A stretch of 64,000 nt of DNA from IMG/VR virus record IMGVR_UViG_3300028591_000105, one strand, 5' to 3'. A program made the position numbers and the translations under genes. The first letter of the stretch is position 1. Each line of letters opens with the position of its first letter. The notes beneath the pieces are model-generated. The model searched no databases, had not been told where the DNA came from, and saw only the letters and a program-made list of their open reading frames with translations. Origin of the DNA: an uncultured virus (IMG/VR IMGVR_UViG_3300028591_000105). Taxonomy: Duplodnaviria; Heunggongvirae; Uroviricota; Caudoviricetes. This document shows, piece by piece, positions 1 to 61,092 of the stretch.

Positions 1-2691
1 GGTTCAATAGTAGGTCCTGGAAGAGGTAGCTCTGTATGTTTCTTATCTAATTATCTTTTAGGAATAACTTAGCTTGACCCGATAGAATGGGAGCTTCCCT
101 ATTGGAGATTCTTGAATGAAGAACGTGTTGAGCTACCCGATATTGATATAGACCTAGCTCCATCAAAAAGACCTGAAATATTTAAACGTATTAGAGAAGA
201 GCGTGGTGAATTAAATGTGCTTCAAGTATGTACTTTTGGCACAGAAGGTACAAGAAGTGCAATTGCTGCTGCCGGCAGAGGTTATCGAAGTGAAAAGTAT
301 CCAGATGGATTAGAGGTAGAAATAACTCAATATTTATCGAGTTTAGTACCAATGGAACGTGGCTTTCTTTGGTCAATAGATGAAGTTATTAATGGTAATG
401 TCGAAAAAGATCGTAAACCTGTACAAGCCTTTATAGATGAAGTTTCTAAATATCCTGGTTTATTAGAGCTGATTCAATCTATTGAAGGACTTATTTGCCG
501 CCGAGGCATTCACGCGAGTGGAGTAATACTTTATAATAATAGTCCTTTTGAAACCAATGCTATCATGCGCAGTCCTGATGGCACTCTCACAACATAGTTC
601 GATCTTCATCAGTCTGAGTGGGCTGGCGACGTAAAATATGACTATTTAGTTACTGAAATATGTGATAAGCTAACCTCTTGTATTGAGCTGCTCCAGCGCG
701 AGGGATTAATAGATCCGAATAAAAAACTGAGAGAGGTTTATAATGAATATCTTCATCCGGCAGTATTGAATTTGGACGATAGTAAATTATGGGACGCATT
801 GGCTGAAGGCTCTGTCCTTGATGTATTCCAGTTCAGTACGGGAGTCGGATTGGCAACGGCAAAGCAAGTTAAACCTCGTAATCCTACTGAATTAACTTCC
901 GCAAATGCTCTAATGCGTCTTATGGGAGAAAAAGGGAAGGAGCGGCCGCTTGATAGATATTGCCGTATTAAGCAAGATATAAATAGATGGTACGATGAAG
1001 TAAGAGCAATAGGTTTAAGTGAAGAAGAAATAAAAGTTCTTGAACCTTATTATGTACCTAATTACGGAGTGCCGGCTAGCCAAGAAGACCTTATGATGGT
1101 TTGTCTTGACCCAAAACTAGCTCATTTTACACTTAAAGAGGCCAATGCCGCGAGAAAAACCGTGGCTAAAAAACATATGGGCGAAATACCTGCATTACAC
1201 GATAAGTTTGTTAATCAATGTCCAAATACTAGACTTGGTGAGTACGTATGGGAAACTACCATGGGACCTTAGATGGGTTATGCATTTGCTCGACCTCACG
1301 CCCTTGCATACAGCTTCGTAGGTATCCAAACTCTCTATCTTGCCACCAACTTTCCACCCATCTTCTGGAATTGTGCTTGCTTAATAGTAAGCGCCGGCGG
1401 AACAGATTTGCTTAATATGGATTTTGATGATGAAGAGACTGATGAAAAGAAAAAGAATAAAAATGTCGATTATGGTAAAATTAGTAAAGCAATAGGAGAA
1501 TCAAAAGAAAAGGGAATTAAAATTGCTCCACCAAATATAAATCATTCTGACTTAATATTTAAACCAGACCTTTATAATAATCAAATCTTATATGGACTTA
1601 AAGGGATATCTCGTATAGGAACAGATTTAGTTTATGAAATATTTAAACATCGTCCATATACATCTATTTCTGACTTTTGCAAAAAGGTAAAAGTTAATAA
1701 ACTTCAAGCAACTTATCTTATAAAATCTGGTGCTTTTGACGATTTATACGGCGGTGACAGAGAAAAAGTGATGAAAGAGTACTTATCTTCTGTCGCTGAC
1801 CAGAAAAAGCGCATTACTCTTCAAAATATGAATATGCTTATAGAAAAAGATTTACTTCCTGAAAATTTAGACTTGGAAAAAAGAATATTTAATTTTAACA
1901 AGTATCTCAAAAAATTTAAGAAAGATAAGTACTACATTCTTGATGATGTGTCTTATAATTTCTTTACTAAAAACTTTAATGAAGATTACCTTGAAGATAT
2001 TCATGTTGAAGACAATAATAGTAGTGCAAAAATACTTCAAACAAAATGGGATAATATTTATAAAACTGCTATGAATCCAGTAAGAGATTGGATGAAAGCA
2101 AATCAAACAGAAATTCTTAATACTTTAAATACTACTTTATATCAAGAAACATATAATAAATATGCCTCTGGCTCGCTATCTGAATGGGAAATGGAATCAT
2201 TAAGTTTCTATTATCACGACCATGAGTTAGCAAATCTCAATACAAGAAAGTATGGAATAGTTGATTTCAAGTATCTTAGTGAAGAGCCAGTAGTTGACCG
2301 TCAATTCACAACTAAAGATGGTAATGAAATAACCCTATTTGAAATAAGCCGTATTGCAGGTACTGTTATAGACAAAGATAAGAACAAATCTGAAATTATA
2401 CTGCTGACAACAAGCGGTGTAGTTACTGTAAAAGTTTGGAAGAATCAATATGCCAAATGGGATAAACAAATATCTGAACGTGGTGAAGATGGTAAAAAGC
2501 ATGTTGTCGAGAAGAGCTTCTTCTCGAAGGGCACTAAGTTAATTATCACTGGTATACGCAGAGGAGATAATTTTATTCCTAAAAAATATAAGTCTACTGA
2601 ATATCCTTTATTTGAGAAAATAATATCTTTAAGTGAAGATGGTTCTACAATAGTAGACTTTGCGACTGAAAGAGCGGAGGTAGAAGAATGA
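1..2691 (+). CDS. dnaE: DNA polymerase III alpha subunit (5' end outside window), TAG=Gln
   Basis: GPGRGSS, GIT*LDP, RFLN.ER..LPDIDID, GIHASGV, KYDYL, GYAFARPHALAYS motifs; track ORFs 112, 766 and 1273 share one frame broken only by TAG at 70, 595 and 1270; ends TGA. Confidence 0.95.
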
Positions 2692-3626
2692 GTTCCATTG
2701 GACTCTATGATTTAGACTTGCTTCATTCTCCTAAATCTTGGCCAAACCTTGAGCTTATGAAAGTATATAATTACTTTCATAAGCAAGGAGACCAAGTAAT
2801 ACTAATGAATAAAAAGGAAGATGAAGGACGATATAATAAAATCATATATTTCAAAGATAATAAAAAACTTCAAATTCCAAAGGGGATAAATGTAATTGGT
2901 AGAAATAAATAGATATATGGAGAAGGTTTTTTTAATACCTTTTCCCCCTTGCCAGAAAAATATTCCATTTCGCCGCCGGACCCAATAGTTTATCTAACAG
3001 TTTGTAACAAATTTAAAACTATTAAATGGAATAATTTTATAAGAAGTTCAATTGTAAGATTTTCTAATAATGATATGACAGGTTATAAACCAGAAGCAAA
3101 AGACCTTTATATTGTTGATAGAGATTTTTGCGCACTAGAGGGCGCGGCAGATTTCTTACTAGAATACAAACAAAAAACAATTCACTTTTTCCACACTTTA
3201 AGAATAACTTCAATTGAAGATTATAATTTATTTAGTCGCTTTACTTTAATACTATCAAAACCTTTATTTATAGATTTTAAATTTAATAAGGAGTTTTTAT
3301 TAGAAAACATTAATGAAAAACTTCACTTTAATGTATATACCCCTCAAGCAGAAGAAACAGATAAGGATTTTAAAATAAGGACTATTAAAATGGGGATAAT
3401 TATAAAAAATAAAAAAGCACTATTTATTTATAATCAAATTTTTATGAGAGATAGATTTTAGAGCTATATTGCAAAATGGATTGCTGCGCCGGCATAGAAT
3501 ACTTATGCTTAGTATTATAAAGATAATAAAGAAGCCTTGGCTTTTATGAATAATGCCTCAACAGAAATACGCTTATTATTAAAATCTAATCCTTAGACTA
3601 CTAATATTGAAATAATTGACTTTTGA
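2688..3626 (+). CDS. hypothetical protein, N-terminus resembling phage radical-SAM-associated family (IGLYDLD...PNLELMK..YFH..GD), TAG=Gln
   Basis: track ORFs 2688 and 2949 in one frame joined through TAG; continues through further TAGs to TGA at 3624; no CxxxCxxC seen. Confidence 0.7.
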
Positions 3627-3644
3627 ATAAAAAGGTGGTATAAT
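3616..3644 (+). promoter_or_regulatory. sigmaA/sigma70-type promoter
   Basis: TTGACT-17 bp-TATAAT with TG extension, upstream of AAGGAGG RBS of 3670. Confidence 0.8.
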
Positions 3645-3669
3645 TATTATAAATAAAGGAGGAATAAAA

Positions 3670-3852
3670 ATGAATGAACTTAAAGATAAATTAGATATAC
3701 TTAATTTCAAACTAAAAACTAAAAAAGTTGAGTTAGATAGAATCTCAATAAATACTTTTACTTACAATCCTAAAATTACAGAACTATCTCATGAAATAAA
3801 AGAATTAGAGAAAGAAAAACATGAAATTCTTTCTCAGATGGAGGGCGAATGA
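3670..3852 (+). CDS. small coiled-coil hypothetical protein
   Basis: AAGGAGG RBS, 60 aa, stop overlaps next start. Confidence 0.75.
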   Translation: MNELKDKLDILNFKLKTKKVELDRISINTFTYNPKITELSHEIKELEKEKHEILSQMEGE

Positions 3853-4571
3853 GTAATTTATTTGATTTAACTCTAGAAGACGAAAAAGGCAATTTAAAGT
3901 CAAAAGAAGAAATATTAAAAGAGTTAGGAGATTTTTATGATTCTTTATTGAATCCTAACTAGTTTTCTGGTAAAGAATATTATGAAAAAATAACTAAACC
4001 TGCGGATTTATTAGATTTAGACTTAGTACGAGAGAATGATAATTTTTTCCAACGTGCAATTTATATTAATGAAGAAATGAATGATGAATTAGTTCAATAT
4101 GTCCATCAAACAATTAAGTTTTATAATATAATAGATAAAGACAAAGCTGTTGAAGAAAGAATGCCTATTAATATTTATATCAATACACTTGGCGGCGATA
4201 CAGATTGTTGTTTAGGCATTTGTTCTTCAATTTTAGCAAGTATTACTCCTGTATATACATGGAATATAGGTAAAGCATATAGTAGTGGATTTATTATTTT
4301 ATTATGTGGAACTAAAAGATTTGGATTCAAACATTCTCAATATTTATTTCATTTAGGTTATGCTTATAAAAGTGGAGATTATCATAAGTTTATGGATTTT
4401 GCAGATTATTATCCTACATATATAAAAGATAATATAAAAAAATTAGTTCTTGACCATTCTGAATTAACAGAAGAGGGATTCAACTCTTTAATAAAAGATG
4501 ACTGGTGGTTTTCATCAGAAGAGGCTCTATCATACGGTTTTATAGATGAAATTGCTGATAATATTATATAA
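3849..4571 (+). CDS. clpP: ClpP-like serine protease, TAG=Gln
   Basis: INIYINTLGG, GKAYSSG (catalytic Ser position), YLFH, DWWFSSEEALSYGFIDEI; ATG 3849 with GGAGG, one TAG at 3960. Confidence 0.85.
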
Positions 4572-4586
4572 TGGAGGTATTAACCA

Positions 4587-5411
4587 ATGGCAGAAAAAAT
4601 CGATATTTCAAAAAATTAGAATAACACTATTGAATCTTTTGTCAAAATAATGTCTAATAGCAGTGCTCCTCTTGACCAAAATTCTCTAGATGCTTTTACA
4701 GCAATGCTAGAGTTAGAGGATGTTAAGTTTGATGCGATATATGATACTCTAATGCAGGGTATCAATGAAGGATTTGAAAACGAAGGCGTTAGATAGGACT
4801 TAATTGCCGCCCTTCGTAGGACACCTATTACAAACATAGAAGAGGAAAGAAAATCTGCTGAGGATTTTATTAATAATATAAAGGAAGCAGACCTATCTAA
4901 AAATAAAAAGAACTTCCTTATCTCAATTGTGGAAAAAGGAATTTTAGCTGTTATTGATGTAATAGATAACCCAAGAGAAAAAGTTAAAGTTCAGATTGAA
5001 AAGATAGATCCAAATGCAAAGATTCCTGAATATGCTCATAATACAGATGCCGGCGCAGATGTATTTGCATTAGTAGAAACTACTATTTAGCCTGAAGAGA
5101 CGACTTTAGTTAAAACAGGATTGCGGCTAGCAATCCCTAAGGGGTATGAAATTCAAGTTAGACCTCGTAGTGGACTAAGTCTTAAAACAAATCTCCGTAT
5201 TGCAAATGCTCCTGGTACTATTGATGCAGATTATAGAGGCGAACTATGTATCCTTATGAGTAATATTGGTACAAAGCCTTATACCATTAATGCAGGAGAT
5301 AAAGTTGCTCAATTAGTAATAGCTCCAACACCAATGATGGTCTTTGAAGAAACTTCTATTTCAACTGAAACAGATAGAGGGGAAGGCGGTTTTGGAAGCA
5401 CTGATGCCTAA
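4587..5411 (+). CDS. dut: trimeric dUTPase with ~130-aa N-terminal extension, TAG=Gln
   Basis: DAGADV, RPRSGLS, GTIDADYRGE, GDKVAQLV, RGEGGFGST; ATG 4587 with GGAGG; TAG at 4617, 4794, 5088. Confidence 0.92.
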
Positions 5412-6142
5412 TGGGGAAACGTATTACCTATGAAGAAGTAAAAGAATCTATTGAAAGCCAAGGTTGGACGTTAGTATCTGAATCTTATAAGAATTTAAAA
5501 TCAGGCTTAGATACTCTTTGTCCCAATGGACATAATGTAAGTATAACCTACGAAGATTGGCGAAAAGCAAATGGAAGTTATGATTGTCCAATTTGTATAA
5601 GACAGCCTGTTAAAAAAATCAATGATAAGACTCCAAAGAAAAAAGAAGGTTTTCGCATCCTTGCTATAGACTAGGCAACTGGAACTAGTGGATGGGCAGT
5701 TATGGATGGAAAACGATTAATTAACTATGGAGATTGGTCTACTACTGCGAACCATTCAACAGGTAAAATTTCACAAGTTAAGGCTTGGCTAGACTATATG
5801 GTACAAACAGTTAATCCAGATGAAATTATTCTTGAAGATATTCAGCTTTAGAAGTTCGACGGCGGCGAAGCAGTAACAACTTATAAAAAACTTGCTCACT
5901 TATAGGGAGTATTAAAAAACTACTGTTATGAAAATGGTATTCCTTATAAAATAATTCCGCCAGCAACTTGGCGATAGTATTCAAATATAAAAGGAAAAAC
6001 ACGTACCGATAGAAAACATAGCGCTTAGTTAAAAGTAAAAGAAATTTATGATATAAATGCAAGTCAAGATCAAGCAGATGCAATATTAATTGCACGTTGC
6101 GCCGCCGCTGAAAAGTCGGCAAGTGCAATGATTACTTTTTAA
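5411..6142 (+). CDS. ruvC: RuvC-like Holliday junction resolvase with N-terminal Zn-ribbon, TAG=Gln
   Basis: CPNGH..CPIC then ILAID*ATGTSGWAV, IILEDI, DQADAILIA; ends TAA 6140. Confidence 0.8.
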
Positions 6143-23500: not shown

Positions 23501-25309
23501 TGAAACACCAATAGATTTTAATGCTTTATCAACTTTGTTATAATCTAAATCATCAAATTCACTATCTAATGCACTTACATTATCTTTTAACTCTGTAAAT
23601 CTAGCAATAACTGTCTTCATTGCAGTACCAAGAGTCTCAGGAGATTCCTGAGTTGCTTCTATCATAGTAGTAAGCATAGCAGATGTAGTTTCAAATTCCA
23701 TACCTGCAGAACTTGCAATTGCGGCAGTTCTACTCATCGCATTTGCAATTCCATCAACAGATGCTGCTGCATGAGCCGCCAATTCAGAATATACATCTGT
23801 TACATGTTCACCCTAAGACATTTCCATATGGAAACCACGAACGGCAGATGTCATAAGAGATGTAGCTTGCTCAAAGTCTAGACCAGCAAGAGTTGCCAAT
23901 TTCATTGTAGATTCAGTTAAAGATAACGCTTCTGCTTCTTCCAAGCCTTGTTGGAAATATAATCCAGATGCCTAAACAACTGATAAAGTAGACTATCCTA
24001 ATTTATTAGCAATTTCAGCATATGCGCTATATTTATTCCACATATCTTCAATGGAATAGTCAGTAACCATTGCAATTTGACCAAATGCTTTATCCAAATC
24101 TTGAATAACTGCAGAGGTCTATCTTATTTGAGAGACAATAGTATGAAAAATTGCACCCAAAGAAGTCATTTGAGTAATAGTACTTTTTATACTATCAAAT
24201 GCTTTATTAACATTATCCTAAGATGTTTTTTGTTCCTATAATAATTCTATATTTTTATCTGTTTCAACATTTAATTTTTCTTGATTTAATGCTGTATTAT
24301 TTAAACCTTGTGTAGCAGTCTAAGCATGTTGCTTTGCTGCTTCAGTCATAGCTCGTTCTCTATTAGCAATTTCTTGCTATAAAGGTTCAATAGTACTTAA
24401 TGCTTCAGCATATTGCGCAATATTTGCACTTGAACCAGTTGCCTAATAATTACCGCTAATATCAGTACCACCGGCAGAAGTCATTTTATTAACTGCAGCA
24501 TTGGCTAATCCCTTATTTACAGTATCATAATTACCTAATTCATTAACTAATGTTTTTAAATCATTTATATACTATTCAACAAATTCTGAAGATTCTGCAT
24601 ATTCAAGCTAATCTTCATCTAAAATTTTCTTTAACTCAGAAAAAGCAGACTCTACATCTTCTCCTGTAATAGCAATATTTAATAATGCTTGTCTATACTT
24701 TTCAATTTGGGCAGTATTTGTAAAAACATTACTGTCAATAATTGCTGCAGCACTCTATTGCTAGCTGTTTGTTGTTGAACTTAATTGTTTATTAAGAGTA
24801 CTCTAACCAGATGAAAACTACTAAGAAGCAATTTTAGCTAAAACAGATTCTAAATCTTTACCACTTTTAATTGCATCTGATAGCTCTTTTCTCATGTTCT
24901 TAGTTGAGAATTTTTCTACAGCATCAAGTGCAGATTGTTTTAAATCGTCCTAGGCAGAAATAGTTTCTTGTAGTTTACTTTTTAAATCATCTAACTCTTT
25001 TGAAAATTTTTTAAAGTTTTCAGGTTTTGCTAAATCTTCTAGTCCTATATTTACACGACTTAAAACCTAACTTAAATCCTAAAATTTTTTACTAAAACTA
25101 TTTATATCTTTTTGATTTTTAAAACCTGTTTGTATCTAAGCCATTAAGTCCTTTATTAAAGACTCTGCTTTTAATATATCTTTATCTACACCAGCAAAAA
25201 GATTAGAATCTACTCCATTCTTTTGCATTTCTGCACGAATATTTTTTAAAGAGGCGAGTATATTGCTAGCATCAAATTCGCCTCTGTATTTAATTACTCT
25301 ATCTGCCAA
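17537..25309 (-). CDS. tape measure protein (~2590 aa), TAG=Gln
   Basis: TTG start with GAGGTG; fragments 23411, 20906, 20438, 19523, 17537 in one frame; TP901-type core (MIEATQESPETLGTAMKTVIARF), coiled coils, C-terminal GGIVDYTGPAWVDG. Confidence 0.9.
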
Positions 25310-47155: not shown

Positions 47156-48103
47156 TTAACTCAGCTCCAGTTTAAACTCTTCTTCTTCATCGTCTTCTTC
47201 TACTGCTTTCTAGAATCTCCTGAAGTCCATTTCATCAAAATCTTCGCCCTCTAATTCTGCCGCAACTTTTAAGTTCTAAATTCTTTGTTCTATTTCTTCT
47301 GCTACTCCAGTTTCATTAGTATACAAATATCTTAACCAATTCTTCATATTTTTCATCGTATAGTCTACTTCATCTCTTACTGCACCATCATAATACTCCA
47401 ATTCAGTACCAGTCTTTTCTAAATAAGCAAAAACCTCGCCAAAACTATCAAATTCATTTGCTTCTTTTACATTCTTAGGAGTAAGATTTGATAATTTTGC
47501 GAGTTCGTCATATGCCTTTAAATCCTTAGAGAAGTCAATTCCTTCTCTCATTTTATCTTCAATTATTAATGAAATCTTACACATTTTTAGTGCCTAGTCT
47601 TCATTAAGAGCGCCAACAACATTCTATGAAGTTAAAATGCCCTAGTGTAAATTTTCTAGATACTCTAACTCCTATTCGTCATAAGTATCTCCCCATTTTC
47701 TTCTTAGCTCTTCATTTTTCTTTTCTCTCAATTCAGGAATTGCATCTTCTACACGTCCTTCTTCTAATAACTACAAATATACTCTGTTATATTCTTCCCA
47801 ATTTAAATGTTTATATTCTTGTGCTCTAAAAATTGAACAGTAAGGTCCAAAACCATCAGCACCATAGCCCTAATAGCATTTTTCCCACTAGTCTGGAATA
47901 AAAGGGACATTAGCCCATTGACATATCTAATCTACAGTATTCCAAACTTTTGCTTTATTATCTTTCGCCGCGTCAGCAATAATCTTTTTAATACATTCGC
48001 GACATATTGGTAACTATTTATCATGTAGTAAAGAATTTTCTATTGCAATAAAATGAGCAATAGATTTTGATTCTCCACACTTCTAACAAATACGCTAAGC
48101 CAT
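47156..48103 (-). CDS. Zn-finger protein upstream of TerL (putative terminase small subunit), TAG=Gln
   Basis: RIC*KCGE...PICRECIK N-terminus; one frame to TAA 47156. Confidence 0.65.
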
Positions 48104-49781: not shown

Positions 49782-49810
49782 GTATAACACAATTAATTAG
49801 AGAAGTCAAA
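49782..49810 (-). promoter_or_regulatory. sigmaA-type promoter of the TAG-rich regulator
   Basis: minus strand TTGACT-17 bp-TATACT with TG extension. Confidence 0.7.
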
Positions 49811-49908
49811 TAGTTGATTAGGGTGCAGATGCAGGTGAAAAAATTGGTTCGTGAAAATTTGTTGGCAGCCACTTTAGTATGCTAAAGTGTAAAAGTTTTT
49901 TCAAAAAA

Positions 49909-49974
49909 AGCTACCCCCCATACGTCAAAGCTAGAGCTAGAGCTAGATGGGTCCTACAGGTACTTGAAAGCTAC
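49909..49974 (+). repeat. AGCTAG microrepeat cluster 1
   Basis: AGCTAG at 49929, 49935, 49941 flanked by AAGCTAC. Confidence 0.7.
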
Positions 49975-50201
49975 GCGCGGGAGTTTTAACCAATCCTCGG
50001 GAAATACTTTAGCGATTTAAAGTGCTAAAGTTAGTAGTTGCAAACCACTTTAGCGATTTAAAGTGCTAAATAGTTAAATCTTTTAATCAAATAGTTGACA
50101 AATAATTATAGATATAAGTTTCACTCTATCTTGGGGCAAATATTTAGTTAAAATTTTTAACTAAGATAAAAGAAAAGGTAGACTTTTGTCTACCTTTGAT
50201 T

Positions 50202-50414
50202 TTAGTAAACCATATCAAGAAACCACATTTCAGTATACTTGAAATCTATGTTGTATTGCTTGCACAGTGCTTTCATGTCAGCAATTGCGGATTCGGTTCT
50301 ATCGTTATAGACTTTATCCCAAAGAGCAAGCAGTTTTGCATACTTCGTTCCAGTCATTGCATTGAGAATTGCAACAGTCTTTTTCATATCAGTGATGTTA
50401 TAGTTTTTTGTCAT
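50202..50414 (-). CDS. early hypothetical protein
   Basis: AAGGA RBS, TAA stop, terminator at 50171-50197. Confidence 0.75.
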   Translation of the reverse strand: MTKNYNITDMKKTVAILNAMTGTKYAKLLALWDKVYNDRTESAIADMKALCKQYNIDFKYTEMWFLDMVY

Positions 50415-50526
50415 AGTAATCATTTCCTTTCATAGTCGATTATTGATAGTTATTGATAGAAGTTAGATTTTAAATTTTTGGTTCTGTTCTGCTCTTGATG
50501 TTGAGCAGAACAGAACAAGTGTTTTA

Positions 50527-50700
50527 TTAGGCGTTGTCGTCTGCGGAGATGTTCTGTGCCATCATCTTGTTGTAAGTGGCGTGAATTAACTTCTTAGCGT
50601 ACTTGTACTCGGTGATACGGAAGAACTTAATAGTGTTCTTGTGCTCAAAGCCGAACTTGTTGATGATGTCATTCTGCATTGCGGTAATAGTCTTAGTCAT
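50527..50700 (-). CDS. early hypothetical protein
   Basis: own TTGACA/TATAAT promoter (50750-50778), RBS, terminator. Confidence 0.75.
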   Translation of the reverse strand: MTKTITAMQNDIINKFGFEHKNTIKFFRITEYKYAKKLIHATYNKMMAQNISADDNA

Positions 50701-50859
50701 AGTAACACAACCTTTCAAGTTTTGGGGGTTTTCCCTTTTCTCTAATACTATTATAGCATATGATAGTTAGTTTGTCAATAGGTTTTTGCAAAGTTTTTTA
50801 TTTTCTATGTTTTGCACAAAAGGATCGATTGTTGTTTGTGTAGTTTGCACAAATGAGAA

Positions 50860-51300
50860 GATTAGTAAGGAATAGAATAAGAATAGAAAATATTAGAAGT
50901 AAGAATAGTTGAAGATAATAGTGTTATATTAATAAAGTATGACAGAATATGGCTAAAGTGTGAACGTCGCTCCGGCGCAGGGCGACGCTTTAGCGAGTTA
51001 AAGTAATGAAGTAGAGTAAGTAGTAATATAAAGATTATTAGTGAAAATAGTTATATGTAACAGTGTTATAATGTTAGAAGTAGTATTATATAACAGTGTT
51101 ATGTTGATGTTGAAGTAGTTATATATAACAGTGTTATATTTAAGTTATAGTAATATGAATATTAGTATGTATTAGATAGATTGAATATAATAGTAGTAAT
51201 ATATAATAGTGTTATATAATGTTAGATAAAAGTAGGAATAAAATATAGATAAAAATGATAAAATAATAGCAAATAAATAGGGCTTGATATAAGGAGTATT
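50860..51300 (+). repeat. C-depleted AT-rich non-coding tract with iteron-like repeats
   Basis: about five copies of (TAG)TTATATATAACAGTGTTAT-like unit (near 50915, 51048, 51081, 51116, 51194). Confidence 0.65.
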
Positions 51301-51410
51301 TGGGGCGGCACTTTAGTGCTTTAAAGTGCTAAAGTATTATCAATACAAATTAGTTAAATTTTTTAACTAATAGGAAAAATAAAAAGGTTGAGTTTCCTCA
51401 ACCTTTGATT

Positions 51411-51650
51411 TTACACCATCTCTTCCTGCTCATCTACAAAAAAGTAGTCTATCTTATTCCAATCAACTTTCCCATAAGGCATTACAACGTCAGGCTTTTC
51501 ATTGTTGATTTTTGTCACATATTCAGTGAGTTCCTCTTTGGTTCTGCCATAGCAATAGAAAGCAAGGTAGGTATCATTAGAAGTCTCCCGAGGAGTACCT
51601 GCATTATAAACGGTCGGAACTTTAGTCTTGTAGCAAATAGTGTTTGTCAT
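51411..51650 (-). CDS. early hypothetical protein
   Basis: promoter -35 at 51707, AAGGAG RBS, terminator 51381-51406. Confidence 0.8.
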   Translation of the reverse strand: MTNTICYKTKVPTVYNAGTPRETSNDTYLAFYCYGRTKEELTEYVTKINNEKPDVVMPYGKVDWNKIDYFFVDEQEEMV

Positions 51651-51909
51651 ATTGAACAACTCCTTTTCTTATTTTCTATATTAATTATAGCATACTTTTT
51701 TCTATTTGTCAATAGGTTTTTGCAATTTTTTTTACTTTCTACCTTTTGCACAAAAATCGATCAGTTATTTGTGCAGTTGGCATATGCTAACCAAATGTTA
51801 CCAAAGTGTGAACTCTGTGCCAGCGCTAAGTAGCGGATTAGTTAAAATTTTTAACTAATTTAAAAAGAAAAGAAAGACTGGAATCTTTTTCCAGTCTCTT
51901 TTTTTTTAG

Positions 51910-52137
51910 TTAAATCTTTAAACCAAACTTGTGTATAGTCATATCAATGGCGTCAAGTATATCAGCCATTTCAGAATTTGTGACTCTTACAGAAATATCA
52001 GAGAGTCCGCCATTCTCGCACTGCTTGCAAAGTCTTACACCACCATAGGCATATTCAAGGGTGAGATTCAAACCATGTACAGTATTGATATTGTCTACCT
52101 TAGTTCTGAGGATTTCCTTTGTGATTCTCTTTGTCAT
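51910..52137 (-). CDS. early hypothetical protein (LEYAYGGVRL)
   Basis: promoter -35 at 52207, RBS, terminator. Confidence 0.8.
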   Translation of the reverse strand: MTKRITKEILRTKVDNINTVHGLNLTLEYAYGGVRLCKQCENGGLSDISVRVTNSEMADILDAIDMTIHKFGLKI

Positions 52138-52475
52138 ATAAATCAATTCCTTTCTTTAGGACTTCCTGTCCTTTACTATATATATTATAACATACTCTTA
52201 TTTATTTGTCAATAGATTTTTTTAATTTCTACCTTTTGCACAAAAATGCTATTCCATTTTATGCAGTTGGCATATATTAACTGAATATTGCCAAAGTGTG
52301 AACACTGCGCCGGCGCAGGGCAGCGCTTTAGTGCTTTAAAGCGCAAAACTATTTTAGTTTTACAAAATGTTAATAATTGTTCACAAAATATTAATTGCAA
52401 TTGATTCAATTTCATGTTATAATAATATCAGAAACAAGGGAAAGACTCTTGAGGATACCGAAAGGATTTGATACT

Positions 52476-52676
52476 ATGATGAACACTATTGCAAGAGAAG
52501 ATCTTATAACCCGCGCAGATTTCTATGAGAATGCTGCTATGAATCTGAGTCGCGGCGAGTTCGTCCGTTTCTTCGGTTGCGAGCCGCATGACCCGCTTAC
52601 TTTCGACTATTCCTTCGATAATGTAGAATGGAATCAGTCACTTGAATTTGCATATCAGGCATATCTTGAAAGTTGA
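52476..52676 (+). CDS. early acidic protein, paralogue of 53462
   Basis: TTGCAA-17-TATAAT promoter at 52395; GCEP.D...F.Y.FD....WN..LE.AY.AY shared. Confidence 0.8.
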   Translation: MMNTIAREDLITRADFYENAAMNLSRGEFVRFFGCEPHDPLTFDYSFDNVEWNQSLEFAYQAYLES

Positions 52677-52932
52677 TAAAAGTCAAGGTTGAGGAAACTC
52701 AACCTTTCACTTTTTACAAGTGTTTCACACTTTAAAGCGCTAAAATGCACCACAAGCAGTATGGCGTTCATATTTTTGTTATATATGTCTAAAACATGAA
52801 CCTCACGCCGGCGCCCGGCGTGGATAGAAAATGAATGGAATGTTGCTAATGTGTGAACGGCGGCGGCGCGAGTTAGTTAAAAGATTTAATTAAATAGCAA
52901 AAGAAAAGGTTGAGAAAACTCAACCTTTGACT

Positions 52933-53121
52933 TTATACTGGACAATAACTAAATTCAAGGTTATCAATTACATCGTCAAGTTCCTCACCAATTTCTAACA
53001 AAAAATCAGTTAAAGCGTTATCCATTGCTTCCGTAAAACTTGGTGCAGTAATCCTATATGATCTTTCAATATATCCATCTCCGTATCCCTCTATATAGCA
53101 TATACTGATTGAATAAGTCAT
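52933..53121 (-). CDS. early acidic protein, paralogue of 62060
   Basis: YIEGYGDGY.ER.YRI...GEELDDVID shared. Confidence 0.8.
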   Translation of the reverse strand: MTYSISICYIEGYGDGYIERSYRITAPSFTEAMDNALTDFLLEIGEELDDVIDNLEFSYCPV

Positions 53122-53134
53122 TTTTATCAACTCC

Positions 53135-53281
53135 TTATATTCTAACTATTTCATAGCTCTTTGCGCCGTAAATTTTAAGATGGGTTTCTGCAAAAAGTTT
53201 CAAATCTACATCTGAATCCGCCTTGAACTGTCTTTTATAGCAGATATTACCTTTTCCGTTGTAGAATAAGATTTTATTCAT
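53135..53281 (-). CDS. early small protein (48 aa)
   Basis: promoter -35 at 53332, AAGGAG RBS, TAA. Confidence 0.7.
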   Translation of the reverse strand: MNKILFYNGKGNICYKRQFKADSDVDLKLFAETHLKIYGAKSYEIVRI

Positions 53282-53461
53282 TTTTATCAACTCCTTTATT
53301 GTACTTATATTATACCATATTCAAAGTAAAATGTCAATCGTCAAAACCACCAAATATTTTCTAAAACTTTGTGCAATTTACCAATTGAAAACTTGTCTGA
53401 TTTGTGCTATAATATATATAGTAAAACAAACAACGACCCTGAACCTAAGGAGATGTTTACT

Positions 53462-53638
53462 ATGACAACCAGAAAAGAATTTTATGAAATGCTCGTTGAA
53501 AACTTAACCCATGACGAATTTGTCAATACACTCGGTTGTGAGCCTGCCGATATTCAGGCTTTCGAGTATGATTTCGACACTGACGTTACGTGGAATATGG
53601 CTCTTGAGTATGCATATAATGCATACATTGATAATTGA
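53462..53638 (+). CDS. early acidic protein, paralogue of 52476
   Basis: TTGAAA-17-TATAAT promoter, AAGGAG RBS, GCGGGC hairpin terminator. Confidence 0.8.
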   Translation: MTTRKEFYEMLVENLTHDEFVNTLGCEPADIQAFEYDFDTDVTWNMALEYAYNAYIDN

Positions 53639-53852
53639 ATCCTACAAATCCTTTCGGGGATGGCGGGCGAAATGCCCGCTTTTCTCTTGTATTTAGTTAA
53701 AAAATTTAACCAACTGCCGGCGGCCGGCATGGGTTCACACTCTCTTAATATATATCTAAACTATGAACAGTTGCAGGCCGGCACTTTAGCGCTTTAAAGT
53801 ATTAAAGTATTAAATAAAAAAAAGAGGAACAGATGTTCCTCTTATTATAAGA

Positions 53853-54038
53853 TTAGCCTTTTGCTAATCTTAATCGCGCCATCAAGCGCAAAGATGAAGT
53901 AATCCAAAGCAAATCTTGGTCATCTACATCAACCGCCTGATTGTGCCAATCAAGAGCATACTTGTAGATAACTTCTGCATTGGAGAAGTCCTCACCATTG
54001 ATAGTGATACCAACAAACTTATCAATATTCTTAGCCAT
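53853..54038 (-). CDS. early hypothetical protein
   Basis: promoter, AAGGA RBS, terminator 53821-53843. Confidence 0.75.
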   Translation of the reverse strand: MAKNIDKFVGITINGEDFSNAEVIYKYALDWHNQAVDVDDQDLLWITSSLRLMARLRLAKG

Positions 54039-54181
54039 AAAAACACGTCCTTTCAAGTCAGGTGAGGTTCCGGTCTCTCCGTCCCTCTCACTATATATAT
54101 TATACCACAAAGCAGTATATAATGCAATAGGCAAAATACACAAATTTTTATTTCTCAAATTGTACATAGTGCCAATGCCTG

Positions 54182-54590
54182 GGCGCCTAGCGCCCTGGCG
54201 CTCATATTTTAGCGCTTTAAAGCGCAGCCGCGCGAGCCGGCGATTTAGTTAAATCTTTTAACAAAATAGACAAAATGAAAGAGGGCGTTCCCTTACCCTC
54301 TTTCGCCGCCGACTACTCCATTACGCGCCGTCCTGGGGGAACAGGCTAAAGGCGCGGGCAAATTGCCTACTCCATTTATTAGGGCTAAACTACACCATTG
54401 GTATCGACCTTCTTTCTCGCCCTTACTGTAATTATATTATACCACATCTAAGTCTATTTGTCAATACTCTCTCGCAAATTTAAATGTAAATTGTTTATTA
54501 ACTCACCGTTGCTAAATCGTGAACGCGGCGCCTAGCGCCCTGGCGCTCATATTTTAGCGCTTTAAAGCGCAGCCGCGCGAGCCGGCGATT
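54182..54590 (+). repeat. perfect 64-bp direct repeat pair (54182-54245 and 54527-54590)
   Basis: GGCGCCTAGCGCCCTGGCGCTCATATTTTAGCGCTTTAAAGCGCAGCCGCGCGAGCCGGCGATT identical in both copies. Confidence 0.95.
54272..54430 (-). ncRNA. candidate structured small RNA / TAG minigene transcript
   Basis: TTGACA-17-TATAAT promoter (54436-54464), three hairpins plus terminator, AATGGAGTAG twice; only ORF is ATG GTG TAG...TAA. Confidence 0.45.
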
Positions 54591-54766
54591 GTTCACAGTT
54601 TCGACATATGGTATTACTAAACTATGAACACTGGGAGGGACCGAGTTAGCCTATGCTAACTTTAAAACATTAAAGTGGTGTGCTCATATGAATATGCATT
54701 CATATGAATATATACTCATGTCTGATTTAGTTAAAATTTTTAATCAATTGGTAAAGCAAAAGGGCT

Positions 54767-55237
54767 TTACGCCCTTTTGATTAAATTCATCAAAGTTTTT
54801 TCATTGGTAAATGTTGCCTTTTCATATTTAATTTGGTAAGCAATTCCATTTACTGTAACGTCACCGTCCTCGGTAAACTTCTTATTATCCTTTTTCCATT
54901 CTATACCATTTATTTCAGTATAGAGCTTTTCAAAAATCTCCCCTTTGTTATACTTGCTATTTTCTACCATATCATTAAAGTACTCGGCAGAACAGATTAA
55001 AACAGGATTGAACAAAGTGAACATTAATTTCTTAATCTGCTTTGTGGGCTTAAATCTCAATGCCATTCCTGCGCCCCTGCTTGCTCTATCTAACGTGAGC
55101 AGAACGTCAAGGTGCTTTTCATCAGTAACCACATAATATACGTTCTTCTCCCACTCAAACCCGAAAACATAGTTGTGAGTATAAGCAAGCCTATTGTACC
55201 ACTCTATCATAGTCAGCAGAAGATTGATGTTTGTCAT
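54767..55237 (-). CDS. early protein, possible PD-(D/E)XK nuclease fold
   Basis: NKGEIFEK...GDVTVNGIAYQIK pattern; own promoter at 55309. Confidence 0.6.
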   Translation of the reverse strand: MTNINLLLTMIEWYNRLAYTHNYVFGFEWEKNVYYVVTDEKHLDVLLTLDRASRGAGMALRFKPTKQIKKLMFTLFNPVLICSAEYFNDMVENSKYNKGEIFEKLYTEINGIEWKKDNKKFTEDGDVTVNGIAYQIKYEKATFTNEKTLMNLIKRA

Positions 55238-55710
55238 ATAATCAAGTCCTTTCATTTTTAAGGTTTACCCTTGCTTTCTGATACTATTATAACACATAAA
55301 AAGCCGGTTGTCAATAGATTTTTGAAAAGTTTTTCATATTCTCTGTTTTGCACAAAAAAGTTGAATTATTTTGTGCACATTGTCTGTCAACCATTTTCCT
55401 TTACAAAGAAAGAGGGCGTGTCAAGTGATCCGCTTGACACGCTTATTTAATGTAAAGTATTTCTACTTTACAAAGGTGTTTGCTATTTAGTTAAAATTTT
55501 TAACTAAATCGCCGCCAGCGCTCAGTGTGGTGTTCATAGAATAGACATATGTGACTAAAGTGTGAACGGCGCGCCTCTTGCATGTTCATAGATTAGACAT
55601 ATGTGACTAAAGTGTGAACACATGGAGGGACTCGAGTTAGCCTATGCTAACTCATATCTCGCTTTAACGCTTTAAAGTGTTAGTACTTTACCATGAGTAA
55701 GTGGCTTTGT

Positions 55711-55838
55711 CCGGGCACGACTGGGCATGACCGGGCGAGCTGGGCTTTATCGTGCCCGGGCAAGCTGGGTTTGCCTGGAGAGCTAGAGGGCTCCTAGAGA
55801 GCTAGAGCTGAGCTAGAAAGCTAGGCTAGAAAGCTAGT
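55711..55838 (+). repeat. GC-rich CYGGGC repeats plus AGCTAG microrepeat cluster 2
   Basis: CCGGGC/CTGGGC at ~10-bp spacing then about six (A)GCTAG units. Confidence 0.7.
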
Positions 55839-55892
55839 GTTTAATTCACTACCTCGGCGCCGTGACCCTCACGACGCCCTTAATCTATATCT

Positions 55893-56060
55893 CTAATCCC
55901 ATTTACTCAATTGAACAAAATTGTGAGTATCCTTGCAGAATGGACAATACAAATTCTTCAAATGTTCCTTAGAAGTCATACGACTTGACTTCTTATATGC
56001 AGTAGCAACATAACCACAAGTTGGACATTTAAAACGACGTTCAGTAGTTGTCTTTTTCAT
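55893..56060 (-). CDS. Zn-ribbon protein resembling ribosomal protein L33, ends at TAG
   Basis: FKCPTCG...HLKNLYCPFCKDTHNF; GAGGTG RBS; 55 aa. Confidence 0.65.
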   Translation of the reverse strand: MKKTTTERRFKCPTCGYVATAYKKSSRMTSKEHLKNLYCPFCKDTHNFVQLSKWD

Positions 56061-56245
56061 TATTCGTTCACCTCACTTGCATAATCAGTCAGAATAATAA
56101 TTATATTCCAATCAGAATACTGTTTATAATTCCTATCACTAACATGATTTTTAGTTGCTATATCTATAAAACTTATAGCAAACCACATGATAAACATAAT
56201 AGCAATAGTCAACAGAAAATACCCAATCTTTTTAATTCCGTTCAT
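56060..56245 (-). CDS. early membrane protein
   Basis: single hydrophobic helix; promoter -35 at 56300. Confidence 0.7.
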   Translation of the reverse strand: MNGIKKIGYFLLTIAIMFIMWFAISFIDIATKNHVSDRNYKQYSDWNIIIILTDYASEVNE

Positions 56246-56430
56246 TTGGAACACTCCCTTTCTCTTTACTATAATAATTATAACAAAATTTTATAAAAAA
56301 GTCAATGAATAAATTGTAAATAATTATTAAAGATTTTATTACCATGCACCGGCGCAGCGAAGCATTTGGTTAAAAAATTTAATTAATTAATAAAAAGAAA
56401 ATTAAAGCGGACACTTACGTCCGCCTTAAA

Positions 56431-56943
56431 TTATTCTGCATAACAAACCATGTGCTTAAATCTACAGTATTCGTCTCTTTCGTTGCTCTTCCTAATAAAG
56501 AGGTGTTCAGTTTTGCCAAAACATGAAGTTACCTGACCGTGCACGTGAACAACACTCATAACATTTGACGGAGTAACGTCAAACTTTTCTGCGAGAACAT
56601 AAACGGACTGCTGACCATTTACCTTAATGTATTTCATTAACTTATTATACAGAACATATCCATAATCTTTTGTTTTGTATTCAATCTTTTCATCATCTCT
56701 AAGTGAAACGCAAAATCTTGCAATCTGCTGAGAAGTTGCATTGAAATATTTTGCAATATTAGCAATATCTTCTGTTCTGACAAAACCGTTATACTTTTCA
56801 AGTATATAATTAAGAATCTCATTCTTTCTTGCATTCAACTTCATTTTATCAAGTCTTCTCTGTGATACACTAATACTCGTTGTACCCTCTGCTTTAAGAA
56901 GATTTGCAAACTCGTCTACAGTAATGTTAATTCTCTTTCCCAT
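56431..56943 (-). CDS. early tandem HTH-like protein
   Basis: IAKYFNATSQQIARF and VLAEKFDVTPSNV helices; similar layout to 63111. Confidence 0.7.
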   Translation of the reverse strand: MGKRINITVDEFANLLKAEGTTSISVSQRRLDKMKLNARKNEILNYILEKYNGFVRTEDIANIAKYFNATSQQIARFCVSLRDDEKIEYKTKDYGYVLYNKLMKYIKVNGQQSVYVLAEKFDVTPSNVMSVVHVHGQVTSCFGKTEHLFIRKSNERDEYCRFKHMVCYAE

Positions 56944-57336
56944 AATGTACCTCTTTCTACCACTTTTGTGGATTTGACTTTTTTATTCGTGGGGTTCTTT
57001 CCCCCTTACCTTGCAATATTATTATACCACACCCACCAATAAAAATCAATAAGAAAATCCAAATAATTTTTAAAAGAATTATGAACGACTTCCAAAAAAT
57101 ACCAACCTCATTCCAACCCCTAACGCAAAATAATATGACCCCATTGTTAAATAAATATGACCCCTTTGTAAACAGCGGCCCGGCATAAATCAATCCGCTT
57201 TAAAGCATTAAAGTGACCCCTTTAAAAAAAAACAAGGGGAAATTAATACCCCTTGTTATCCAGTTAAGTAAACGTAACCGCCAGTTATTATCCCCGTACT
57301 TCAAACGCCACTTAACCCTTAAATTATGAAACTTTC

Positions 57337-57486
57337 TCATTTGTTTTCACTCTCCTCAAACATCTCATAATCTACATATTCTGTACCACAATATGGACAA
57401 GTATTATCTTCCGCAAGATTTGCAAATTCTGTGCCGCACTCGGTACAAAGATAATACTCACCGTCAAAAATTATCAGAGGTTCCAT
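57337..57486 (-). CDS. small Zn-ribbon protein (49 aa)
   Basis: YLCTECG...TCPYCG; ATG overlaps previous stop. Confidence 0.7.
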   Translation of the reverse strand: MEPLIIFDGEYYLCTECGTEFANLAEDNTCPYCGTEYVDYEMFEESENK

Positions 57487-57659
57487 TATACTTCTTTCCT
57501 TTCTTTTACTACACACGCAGATATACAGCGCGGATTTTGCTTTATCTTATGCATTTGACTAAATGCTATTTCCTTATTAGTATTAGAATAGTATCGAATC
57601 ACTTTTATAGAAGTGCCAACCTTAAAACGAATGATTACAGAATAGAACTTCTTCTTCAT
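57486..57659 (-). CDS. early basic small protein (57 aa)
   Basis: AAGGAAGTG RBS, TAA stop. Confidence 0.6.
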   Translation of the reverse strand: MKKKFYSVIIRFKVGTSIKVIRYYSNTNKEIAFSQMHKIKQNPRCISACVVKERKEV

Positions 57660-57663
57660 TTTA

Positions 57664-57849
57664 TCACTTCCTTAATGCCTTTTTCTTGTCCATTAAATAC
57701 CAAATAGCAGATTGAATTTTTTCTGCTTTTTCACTATCAGTCGTATGATACATACAAACCGTAAGAAACTGAATTAGAATGTCAAACTCTTCTTGAATCT
57801 TAAACTCATATGCTGAAATTATCAGTCTTGCTAACTGTCTTTCTGTCAT
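57664..57849 (-). CDS. early hypothetical protein
   Basis: promoter -35 at 57900, AGGGG RBS. Confidence 0.7.
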   Translation of the reverse strand: MTERQLARLIISAYEFKIQEEFDILIQFLTVCMYHTTDSEKAEKIQSAIWYLMDKKKALRK

Positions 57850-58016
57850 TCTTATCAACCCCTTTACTGTAATTATATTATATCATATAATCACAAAAAA
57901 GTCAATGAATATTTTGTAAACAATTTGTTAACTTGCACCGGGCGACACGTCGCCCTTTAAAGTGCTAAAGCGCAAAAAGCAAAAGAAAAGGGCGCGTAGT
58001 GCGCCCTTAGTTGATT

Positions 58017-58424: not shown

Positions 58425-58588
58425 AGTGTACCTCTTTCTCTGTTTTTAGGAGTTTGTCAGCTCTCTCTAATTTTGTTTTAGGGGCTTTCCCCTTACCTTA
58501 TGTATTAATTATACCATACTTTCTCTTGTTTGTCAATTAAGTTTCTTTTAAAACTTTTTGAACTTTTTGTTAAGAGATTTTTGGTAAA

Positions 58589-58659
58589 TACGCCCACCGA
58601 GAATCGAACTCGGATTGATAGATTAAAAGTCTACTATTCTACCTTTAAATTATAGGCGC
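58589..58659 (-). tRNA. trnK: tRNA-Lys(UUU), divergent, CCA not encoded adjacent
   Basis: GCGCCTA/TGGGCGT acceptor, ATTT/GAAT D stem with GG, GTAGA-CTTTTAA-TCTAT anticodon arm, CCGAG-TTCGATT-CTCGG T arm; upstream TAGACT-17-TATAAT. Confidence 0.85.
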
Positions 58660-58852
58660 ATTGGAGAGGTTTTCTATTTTTCTCTCTCTCTCGCTATATA
58701 TATATTATAGCAGATTTTTAGAAAAAAGTCTATAGATTGATTATTAATTTTATATATTTTTTACGTGAATTAGTTAAAATATTTAACTGAACCGCCAGTG
58801 GCCGGCGCATCGTTCACATCTTGTTAATAAAAAAGAGGGGCACTACCCCTCT

Positions 58853-59290: not shown

Positions 59291-59557
59291 TTACTACCTC
59301 TTTTCCTCTTTAAATTCTTCTTCTTGTGTATAACAACAAACTTGCCGCTCACCTAAATACCCCTTGAAAAATTTTTCATTGTTACAAAATTCATTTGTCA
59401 TTTCATCTATACATTCTTTTATCTCTTCTTCCTCATAATAATAATGCTTACCGTGGTCTTTAAGTATATCAGTCATAAATTCAAGTGCTTCTTTTCTATC
59501 AGTAAAAACTATAGGTTCATCATGACTATCAGACATTATATAAATTGTTTTCTTCAT
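59291..59557 (-). CDS. early acidic hypothetical protein ending TAG TAA
   Basis: promoter -35 at 59628, AAGGA RBS. Confidence 0.75.
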
Positions 59558-60654: not shown

Positions 60655-61092
60655 TTAGTTATTAAATTCATAGTAATGCAATTCAATAATTTTAGGATTT
60701 TTCCACCACCCTAATTTTTGAATTTCAGCATTCCAATCCTTTTTATCAAAATGCACATAAACAGTCACGCCGCTATATGATGAATATCCAATATGAACTA
60801 TCTTTTTATTCTTAAAACTACTATCTTGATTAAAGCGGGAATTTATTAAATTCACTCTTGTATAGCCGTGTTCTATTTCACCATGATGAACTCCATGTGT
60901 AATATCAACACGAGAATCTGCACAACAATCAAATTTAGTTATAATATTTTTATCTATCAATTCATTTACTATTATGGTTTCTCCTTTTTCTATTCTTTTT
61001 TTAATTTCATGGACAGAACATTCAATTGCATTATCAAAAACTTTTCCATCAAAAGATTCAAATTTTTCTACCATAACTTTAATTTTTTTCAT
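60655..61092 (-). CDS. early hypothetical protein (FESFDGKVFDNAIECSVHE)
   Basis: promoter -35 at 61166, RBS, terminator. Confidence 0.75.
   Translation of the reverse strand: MKKIKVMVEKFESFDGKVFDNAIECSVHEIKKRIEKGETIIVNELIDKNIITKFDCCADSRVDITHGVHHGEIEHGYTRVNLINSRFNQDSSFKNKKIVHIGYSSYSGVTVYVHFDKKDWNAEIQKLGWWKNPKIIELHYYEFNN

Follow-up and report, generated by a model that had tools for sequence, protein, structure and literature searches.

The DNA analysed here (the window) is a stretch of 64,000 nucleotides (nt) from an uncultured virus of the Caudoviricetes (IMG/VR record IMGVR_UViG_3300028591_000105). Our subject is a small promoter-to-terminator cassette on its minus strand, enclosed by two copies of a 64-nt direct repeat, in which a Shine-Dalgarno (SD) sequence leads into ATG GTG TAG. 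The window is part of a large rumen phage that reads the amber codon TAG as sense (glutamine). Open reading frames (ORFs) of at least 150 amino acids (aa) number 17 with the standard code and 34 with TAG as glutamine. Among the 34 are two minus-strand frames, 2,590 and 1,737 aa long, in the region 9.6-49.9 kb; the long frames are seen only with the recoded reading. Late genes use TAG for 248 of 12,987 codons (19.1 per thousand), next to 237 CAA and 68 CAG codons. Matches to PHROG families in the window comprise a DnaE-type DNA polymerase, a portal, a Dit-type tail protein, virion proteins, and a sigma factor. A complete relative of 127.6 kb with terminal repeats (G003) is likewise TAG-recoded and encodes 23 tRNAs, one of them with the anticodon CUA. 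Pieces of the region are found in public runs, all of which are metagenomes from ruminant guts.

The cassette lies within 49.9-64 kb, which is built unlike the remaining window, as an array in which each small unit combines a near-perfect TTGACA-17-TGnTATAAT promoter and a common leader with a strongly SD-led short ORF and a terminator. This early array contains 24 SD-led ORFs, and none of their 2,039 codons is TAG. As a terminal stop TAG is used by two early ORFs, in one with TAA directly after it; a tandem TAG-TAA stop ends the early gene at 59294-59557 (minus strand), which would retain termination once TAG is sense. We counted 20 TGn-consensus promoters in the window (repeat families D1-D4), and an SD-led start follows 19 of them. 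Seventeen lead into ORFs without internal TAG, one of these ORFs ending in TAG-TAA; in one of the 17 pairs the script chose a two-codon ATG slightly upstream of the true start at 61092. The remaining two SD-led promoters belong to the sigma-factor gene and to the amber cassette.

The first-pass annotation of this DNA had marked a strong promoter, three stems, and a terminator at this locus, and all of them, including an AGGGC..GCCCT stem, are found on the minus strand where it had placed them (Table 1). The normal-looking ribosome-binding site that it saw ahead of ATG GTG TAG is indeed an SD at a suitable distance, and the 25-aa frame that it described exists when TAG is read as glutamine. It had also noticed AATGGAGTAG twice between the stems; both copies are present, and a third, AATGGTGTAG at the start codon, had been missed. 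There is no SD-led standard-code ORF ahead of the cassette terminator, and the next gene has its own promoter. Behind the terminator, the palindrome TTAAAAGATTTAACTAAA is punctuation that recurs behind other cassettes. The genome has a GC content of about 33%, and the cargo is GC-rich by comparison. This cargo has no repeat elsewhere in 49-64 kb and is not a patchwork of other window repeats, and the promoter, the terminator, and the triple motif are beyond chance.

Table 1. Elements of the cassette and of its borders, in the order in which the minus strand is read; X2 is the related contig described in the text.
Feature	Position in window	Strand	Details
Upstream copy of 64-nt perfect direct repeat	54527-54590		Family D20; 100% identity to 54182-54245
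Promoter-upstream module (GCGTTCAC...AT-rich tract)	54465-54526	minus	Co-travels with promoter; part of 54420-54530, duplicated in X2 record 1 (0 differences)
Sigma-70-type early promoter	54436-54464	minus	-35 TTGACA 54464-54459; 17-nt spacer; TGG; TATAAT 54441-54436; consensus 12/12, TGn present
Shared initial transcribed leader ATAATTACAGTAAGGG	54420-54435	minus	Also after sibling promoters; identity with second X2 promoter copy stops at 54420
Cargo, 139 nt	54281-54419	minus	SD, mini-ORF, motifs, hairpins, most of terminator stem; X2 joint 54280->54420
SD GAAAGAAGG	54408-54416	minus	9 nt upstream of ATG; sibling-cassette module GAAAGGATTGATAC(C/T)ATG
ATG GTG TAG	54390-54398	minus	Met-Val-stop in standard code; inside motif copy 1, AATGGTGTAG, 54399-54390
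25-codon frame with TAG as glutamine	54321-54398	minus	Peptide MVQFSPNKWSRQFARAFSLFPQDGA; TAA 54323-54321, 17 nt ahead of terminator stem
Motif copy 2, AATGGAGTAG	54367-54376	minus	ATG GAG TAG, without upstream SD
Small hairpin GGCA-AUU-UGCC, GGCAATTTGCC	54357-54367	minus	4 pairs, weak; variable 54363 in loop
Central GC hairpin CGCGCC-UUUAG-CCUG-UUCCCC-CAGG-AC-GGCGCG	54324-54356	minus	Predicted pair probability near 1
Motif copy 3, AATGGAGTAG	54313-54322	minus	ATG overlaps TAA of 25-codon frame (TAATG); mostly unpaired in predicted ensemble
Intrinsic terminator with T-rich tail	54266-54304	minus	10-pair stem 54304-54277
Post-terminator spacer with imperfect palindrome TTAAAAGATTTAACTAAA	54244-54265		Families D8, D10 (6 and 7 copies); two further uses in X2 record 1
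Downstream copy of 64-nt direct repeat	54182-54245		Family D20

We compared Logan contigs from four runs with 53850-55260. One contig (X2; 2,284 nt, depth 30.5) joins 54186 to 54532, skipping 345 letters, with 59 letters that fit both sides. We read this joint as an empty site, in which two neighbour genes are separated by a single repeat copy without the cassette. The same contig bears the cassette at another place (54236-54529, 10 differences in 294 positions), and it holds a second identical promoter module (54420-54530) that runs into a different body and then into the same post-terminator spacer. At this second module the joint 54280->54420 skips 139 nt, and the alternative body measures about 258 nt as calculated from the record coordinates. 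The joint thus delimits the cargo, and it assigns the SD and the start codon to the cargo and not to the shared promoter. Neighbouring stretches of X2 differ from the window at 72 of 729 and 14 of 109 positions; hence, in this one contig the cassette has diverged about a third as much as the sequence around it. The empty site, the relocation, and the cargo swap were all read from this one X2 contig of one run, whereas X6 and X8 contributed pieces only. Three further studies (X2, X6, X8) have runs with pieces of the cargo, and those from X6 and X8, with 0-1 differences, are short low-depth contigs without a link to a genome. The first-pass annotation was right to see a self-contained cassette with a cargo that has no standard-code gene: it is a real, intact, mobile, and unusually small promoter-to-terminator unit, whose 139-nt cargo is swapped as a module.

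Besides near-identical copies (97-100%) in ruminant-gut runs we found no homologue, the cassette being absent from 80 related loci, three IMG/VR relatives, and every collection scanned. GenBank phages gave no match to the cassette in blastn with distant settings. Exact patterns of four cassette parts and of the promoter module identified no homologue in IMG/VR, where one 17-mer had six hits that were unrelated by context, and a gapped motif pattern retrieved 42 stretches there, none of them related and most of them coding-like repeats. A cassette 22-mer was not found in the JGI metagenome collection, nor were two cassette patterns found in GTDB genomes. When compared by BLAST with the three IMG/VR relatives, the 409-nt unit had nothing beyond promoter-level matches (best E 0.0019), and in 441 kb from more than 80 related loci nhmmer found nothing at E<=10 and blastn-short found matches of at most 18 nt. 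The sole run labelled metatranscriptomic is marked 'probably DNA', with coverage limited to promoter-like pieces. We also searched the cargo in six frames by tblastn against the 441 kb of relatives' early regions and the remaining window (best E 0.14). No frame matched any protein, so the case that the first-pass annotation had set against its own idea, a decayed fragment of a longer protein gene, is without support.

We propose, at a probability of roughly 0.35, that the unit is an autonomous, movable early-promoter cassette with an amber-gated micro-gene of 25 codons as its cargo. Host RNA polymerase would transcribe about 150-165 nt, from a start near 54429 to the terminator at 54304-54277, with the T-rich tail ending at about 54266, and ribosomes would load at an SD-ATG module of the phage's usual type. 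With the standard code still in force, they would be released at the UAG after Met-Val. Once the phage's glutamine-inserting amber suppressor is active, they would read 25 codons through the GC hairpin to the UAA and produce the peptide MVQFSPNKWSRQFARAFSLFPQDGA, which may be active. The cassette would then join the delayed class of the sigma-factor gene, which combines an early-type promoter with an amber-laden frame. We rank this micro-gene first because it alone explains the ribosome-binding site carried by the cargo, is preceded by two comparable cases in this genome, and agrees with both substitutions that are visible. The SD lies inside the cargo and matches the initiation regions of sibling cassettes, which favours coding, as a gene acting only as RNA would not need an SD.

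The first precedent is the sigma-factor gene (phrog_5767; 49758->48568), which starts with GTG and encodes 396 aa with 16 TAG codons, the first at codon 69. It lies behind a sigma-70-type promoter at 49809 (TTGACT-17-TATACT with TGn). The gene could be transcribed early and translated only after amber suppression, and the factor presumably serves late transcription. Hence, an early-type promoter in front of an amber-containing frame is already used once in this phage. The second precedent is a 315-aa gene at 48103 (minus strand), which starts with AAAGAGGTGAAATAA-ATG GCT TAG and matches phrog_3314 from residue 4 onwards, so that TAG at codon 3 is not special in itself. SD-based start picking yielded two more ATG GCN TAG candidates, at 25144 in the window (minus strand; a giant protein) and in a 186-aa ORF of G003 (~66893, plus strand). 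TAG at codon 3 was found in 4 of 536 SD-led ORFs against about 3.4 from the overall rate, which is no clear excess. The amber at codon 3 is less exceptional than it first appeared, and the sensor of the code switch suggested by the first-pass annotation loses force, since the same codon opens ordinary recoded genes.

The substitutions visible in the cargo affect two sites. At 54335 (C to U in the RNA) codon 22 changes from CAG to TAG, and at 54363 (A to G) codon 12 changes from CAA to CAG, with codon positions worked out by hand arithmetic. Both displayed substitutions are synonymous with TAG as glutamine (2/2), where the chance of a synonymous change in the frame is 20% for any substitution and 35% for a transition.

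Several observations weigh against the micro-gene. TAG is scarce in the first 35 codons of 26 recoded genes (112-6142 on the plus strand, 9679-49758 on the minus strand), where 5 were counted and the rates of the individual genes predict 15.5 (Poisson p 0.002), and most recoded genes have their first TAG beyond codon 45. Starts with ATG GCN TAG are therefore exceptions. The synonymous count covers displayed changes, 8 of the 10 X2 differences lying outside it; moreover, the change at 54335 is synonymous in the +1 frame too, and both changes are neutral for the predicted RNA structure. In a contig from X8 with a depth of 3.6 one base is missing at 54363; this may be an error, and if real it would break the frame. 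The GC content at third codon positions (GC3) is 0.67 in the frame and 0.22 in the phage, with GC concentrated at the hairpin; a GC3 of 0.62-0.73 also occurs in 2 of 24 early ORFs, so a GC-rich cargo is not unique. At 25 codons this would be by far the shortest cargo, the next measuring 46-49 aa, and codon-usage scoring fails to separate frame 0 from frame 1. The frame has no homologue outside the near-identical copies. Finally, the triple AAUGGNGUAG motif spans two frames, and simple coding leaves its AUG-GNG-UAG rule unexplained.

This motif is present in three copies in the cassette. Exact matches to AATGGNGTAG number five in the whole window (both strands), three of them within one 87-nt stretch, and each of the transcript's three ATGs precedes GNG TAG. 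The second and third ATG share a frame, which with TAG as glutamine would encode 52 aa and run through the terminator; tblastn of this frame against phages gave no match, and we do not regard frames longer than the 25-codon one as credible. Copies 2 and 3 contain AUGGA and copy 1 AUGGU, and all three lie between stems and are partly paired, none of them in a hairpin loop. The 5' AAU of every copy and most of copy 3 are predicted to be unpaired.

Folding of the whole transcript gave a z score of -1.39, with 18 of 200 shuffled sequences as stable, and -0.86 in a separate run. The z score was +1.26 for the transcript body minus the terminator and +0.46 for the AGGGC/GCCCU stem region, marginal for the central CGCGCC...GGCGCG hairpin (-1.77, 5% of shuffles), and -3.81 for the terminator, which 1 of 300 shuffles equalled. 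The overall folding energy of the cassette is thus unexceptional; the terminator stands out, and the central hairpin does so marginally. Both variable sites seen in the cargo are neutral to the predicted pairing, as 54335 changes a predicted G42-C35 pair to G-U and 54363 is a loop base. The covariance models of Rfam 15 did not match the cassette at E<=1 (searched over 49-64 kb) or at E<=10 (54240-54480), and the structured RNA that the first-pass annotation had in mind has accordingly become thin. A T-box or riboswitch was rejected on the same lack of an Rfam match, and no type III antitoxin-like or abiF-like RNA was found at the cassette. A suppressor tRNA or tRNA-like cargo was likewise rejected, as ARAGORN finds only a tRNA-Lys at 58588-58660 and Rfam gave no tRNA match at the cassette.

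A non-coding early small RNA is a possible though unlikely alternative. Its three single-stranded AAUGGNGUAG sites around the GC hairpin would be a decoy or sponge that captures a factor recognising UAG or a sequence resembling a start or an SD; candidates are a ribosomal subunit, a release factor, an RNA-binding protein, and a sequence-specific RNase. The Met-Val-amber frame would be part of the first site and not a gene. The crowding of the motif, with GNG UAG behind all three AUGs, its predicted unpaired positions, the GC-rich cargo, and the structure-neutral variants are all consistent with such an RNA. Moreover, units without an ORF are common in relatives' early regions, where a script found them at 133 of 1,011 promoter-like sites, with several more in G003, and one relative carries an abiF RNA above the Rfam threshold, so small RNAs do ride in such regions. 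However, only one hairpin and the terminator fold better than shuffled sequences, Rfam is empty even at E<=10, two variable sites are too few for covariation, and no partner was identified. Apart from the cassette itself, the motif is not enriched in relatives' ORF-less units, and a canonical, correctly spaced SD inside the cargo is left unexplained. Protein-sponge RNAs of the CsrB/RsmZ type carry many GGA motifs, typically in hairpin loops. The cassette resembles them in repeating a short purine-rich GGA motif between stems, in a small RNA behind a strong promoter, but it offers only three sites, outside loops and with GGU instead of GGA in copy 1, and no Rfam match. The CsrA sponge suggested by the first-pass annotation is weakened by this and appears unlikely, and nothing that we observed bears out the anti-defence decoy that it also named. 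In its boldest form, the small RNA would be a tool of the code switch: an abundant early transcript with three AUG GNG UAG units that imitate some of the phage's recoded starts (ATG GCT TAG, 48103 and 25144). These units would tie up or redirect the machinery with which the host terminates at UAG, or signal its state, ahead of the reading of the amber-laden sigma-factor and structural genes. We consider this form, in which alone the sensor of the code switch survives, a long shot.

It is doubtful that the cassette is merely inert or decaying, that is, the remains of a small gene or a by-product of recombination, kept because it is young and flanked by recombining sequences. Such a remnant could be optional and narrowly distributed, as the cassette is with its empty site in a related contig and its absence from the loci, relatives, and collections searched, and identities of 97-100% leave little time for selection to show. 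It would also be expected to have neither a standard-code ORF nor a significant global fold, and a possible 1-nt deletion variant fits decay. Yet the promoter, SD, frame, hairpin, and terminator are all intact, and the complete unit has been relocated in X2 while diverging three times less than its neighbours (10/294 vs 72/729 and 14/109). Nor does any frame match relatives' proteins, and a cargo that is not a patchwork of window repeats and carries a 10-nt motif three times would be unexpected in a remnant. Still less probable is a cis-acting two-codon minigene or translation-coupled attenuator, in which release at codon 3 or read-through to 54321 would set the terminator, with run-on into the next cassette only after the code switch. 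The layout described for axe-txe mg2 and for the LEE1 leader (PMC8708949) is the same, with a single sense codon between AUG and stop behind a strong SD. The read-through frame stops 17 nt before the terminator stem, and AGGGCG in the leader complements GCCCU behind the mini-ORF as well as the 3' arm of the terminator. Against this, the gene that follows is served by a separate promoter, the mini-ORF has no cistron close enough downstream to act on, and the X2 cassette stands in another context. The alternative pairings are 5-6-mers of no statistical weight (z +0.46 for the stem-1 region), and the scheme presupposes that transcription and translation are coupled in the host.

The vehicle, as distinct from its cargo, resembles a kind already known. 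Promoter-early stem-loops (PeSL) are mobile regulatory cassettes of T4-type phages (Arbiol et al. 2010, PMC2839356). As outlined there, they are inserted, deleted, and replaced among relatives at repeated modules, which resembles the empty 64-nt-repeat site and the promoter module with other cargo seen here. A strong sigma-70-like early promoter (12/12, TGn) with an adjoining stem-loop terminator (10 pairs; its function in vivo is predicted) is a further likeness. In contrast, we saw no sign of a T4-like phage: this one has a DnaE-type polymerase, a Dit-type tail protein, and a sigma factor of its own, and it reads TAG as glutamine. The region also has extra punctuation, comprising the 64-nt GC-rich repeat, a TTAGTTAAAA-TTTTAACTAA palindrome, and GTTCAC inverted repeats. 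We therefore suggest that the cassette works like PeSL shuffling without filing it as a PeSL member, the likeness being one of behaviour. It covers the vehicle and not the cargo, which may be amber-gated or minigene-like and has a narrow distribution.

The punctuation between cassettes extends over 49864-57977 (families D5, D6, D8, D10, D13). It includes 6-7 copies of the palindrome TTAGTTAAAA(A)TTTTTAACTAA behind terminators, 7-11 copies of GC-rich blocks that have CTTTAGNG/CTTTAAAG as their core, and inverted repeats of the form GTTCA..TGAAC. One relative's locus (L007) contains related motifs, and these elements are possible operator or recombination sites.

For the cargo, further two-codon minigenes are provided by the bar minigenes of phage lambda. 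The Met-Val-UAG of the cassette matches the two-codon minigenes axe-txe mg2 and LEE1 leader (PMC8708949) exactly, in the standard code only. These minigenes either affect in cis a cistron that begins a few codons further on or are toxic via peptidyl-tRNA drop-off, whereas the cassette has no follow-up translatable in the standard code, is closed by a terminator, and has a reassigned codon as its stop. For gut phages with late genes that read TAG as glutamine, Borges et al. (10.1101/2021.08.26.457843) outline a model of early standard and late recoded translation, in which in-frame stops delay translation until the suppressor machinery has been made. The present window agrees with this outline in that its early genes can be read in the standard code (none of 2,039 codons is TAG) and its structural genes are TAG-rich. 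It differs in that the gating described in the passages on this model concerns structural, lysis, and integrase-versus-lytic genes, with no mention of an early-promoter cassette that contains a 25-codon frame; neither 'non-coding' nor 'leader' occurs in the text. Our literature searches on recoded phages found no description of such a unit, of amber mini-ORFs, or of small RNAs.

Phages that reassign TAG must move from the host's code to their own within one infection, and how this timing is controlled is an open question. The window is a clean test bed for it, with a strictly TAG-free early array, a 16-amber sigma gene behind an early-type promoter, and a movable cassette of start, amber, and hairpin. 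If the micro-gene is translated only after the switch, the cassette would be the smallest amber-gated gene in nature and could be used as it stands to report suppression; as a functional RNA, it would be a new phage small RNA with a start/amber-like motif. Even if inert, it would document PeSL-like modular shuffling outside T4-type phages.

Other small units stand in the early regions of related loci. Conserved ORFs of 5-9 codons lie behind consensus promoters and strong SDs, 12 of them in 10 loci, two of which are the same contig. They encode MRDPPN, MKDPPN, MRAPPK, MRDPPS, MRDPPT, MRDPP, MPNAPPS, MPNAPPR, and MRDPPKLAH (L091:7976, L104:5591, L086:7592, L067:2552 and 5672, L075:6421 and 6550, L103:6400, L110:6314, L128:3479, L008/L115:6460). 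Some stand alone ahead of the next promoter, and others precede a GC-rich RNA and a tRNA gene. RAPP-like arrest peptides are short Pro-Pro leader mini-ORFs, and we take the relatives' Pro-Pro mini-ORFs to resemble R-A-P-P arrest peptides. These ORFs share with the cassette the general layout of early promoter, strong SD, tiny ORF, and structured RNA. Neither the window nor G003 contains such a Pro-Pro mini-ORF, and the motif R-x-P-P is absent from the cassette frame in either code (MV* or MVQFSPNKWSRQFARAFSLFPQDGA).

Promoter units without an ORF were found in G003 (~119-126 kb, minus strand), L008 (4560-4700, 5270-5500), and L009 (1590-2140). They begin with TGTCAAGGGGA and run into the CCCCTTGACA of the next promoter, which would allow the two ends to pair. 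L008 and L009 have one such unit in common (E 8.8e-16), conserved in two distinct copies, too few for covariation. A motif AAUGG-N-CGG shared by the cassette with ORF-less units of L008, L009, and L067 looked promising by eye and showed no enrichment. In L115, which is the same contig as L008, the 3' end of a small early gene (5139-5175) matches the Rfam abiF RNA (RF03085) with 45.1 bits, the gathering score being 37; it may be a copy of this defence-associated RNA carried by a phage. A tRNA-Lys (UUU or CUU) recurs as an early-promoter cassette, at 58588-58660 in the window and in L067 (2107-2181, 7380-7452), L115 (6713-6784), L103 (6608-6680), and L128 (6533-6604); tRNA-Lys is the target of some anticodon nucleases. 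Finally, on the minus strand of the window at 55700-55900, a GC-rich island without an ORF (up to 64% GC) lies downstream of a small gene; in it, CTAG-rich repeats (ctagctttctagcctagctttctagctcagctctagctctctagg) give way to a gcccag..gcccgg unit that is present three times.

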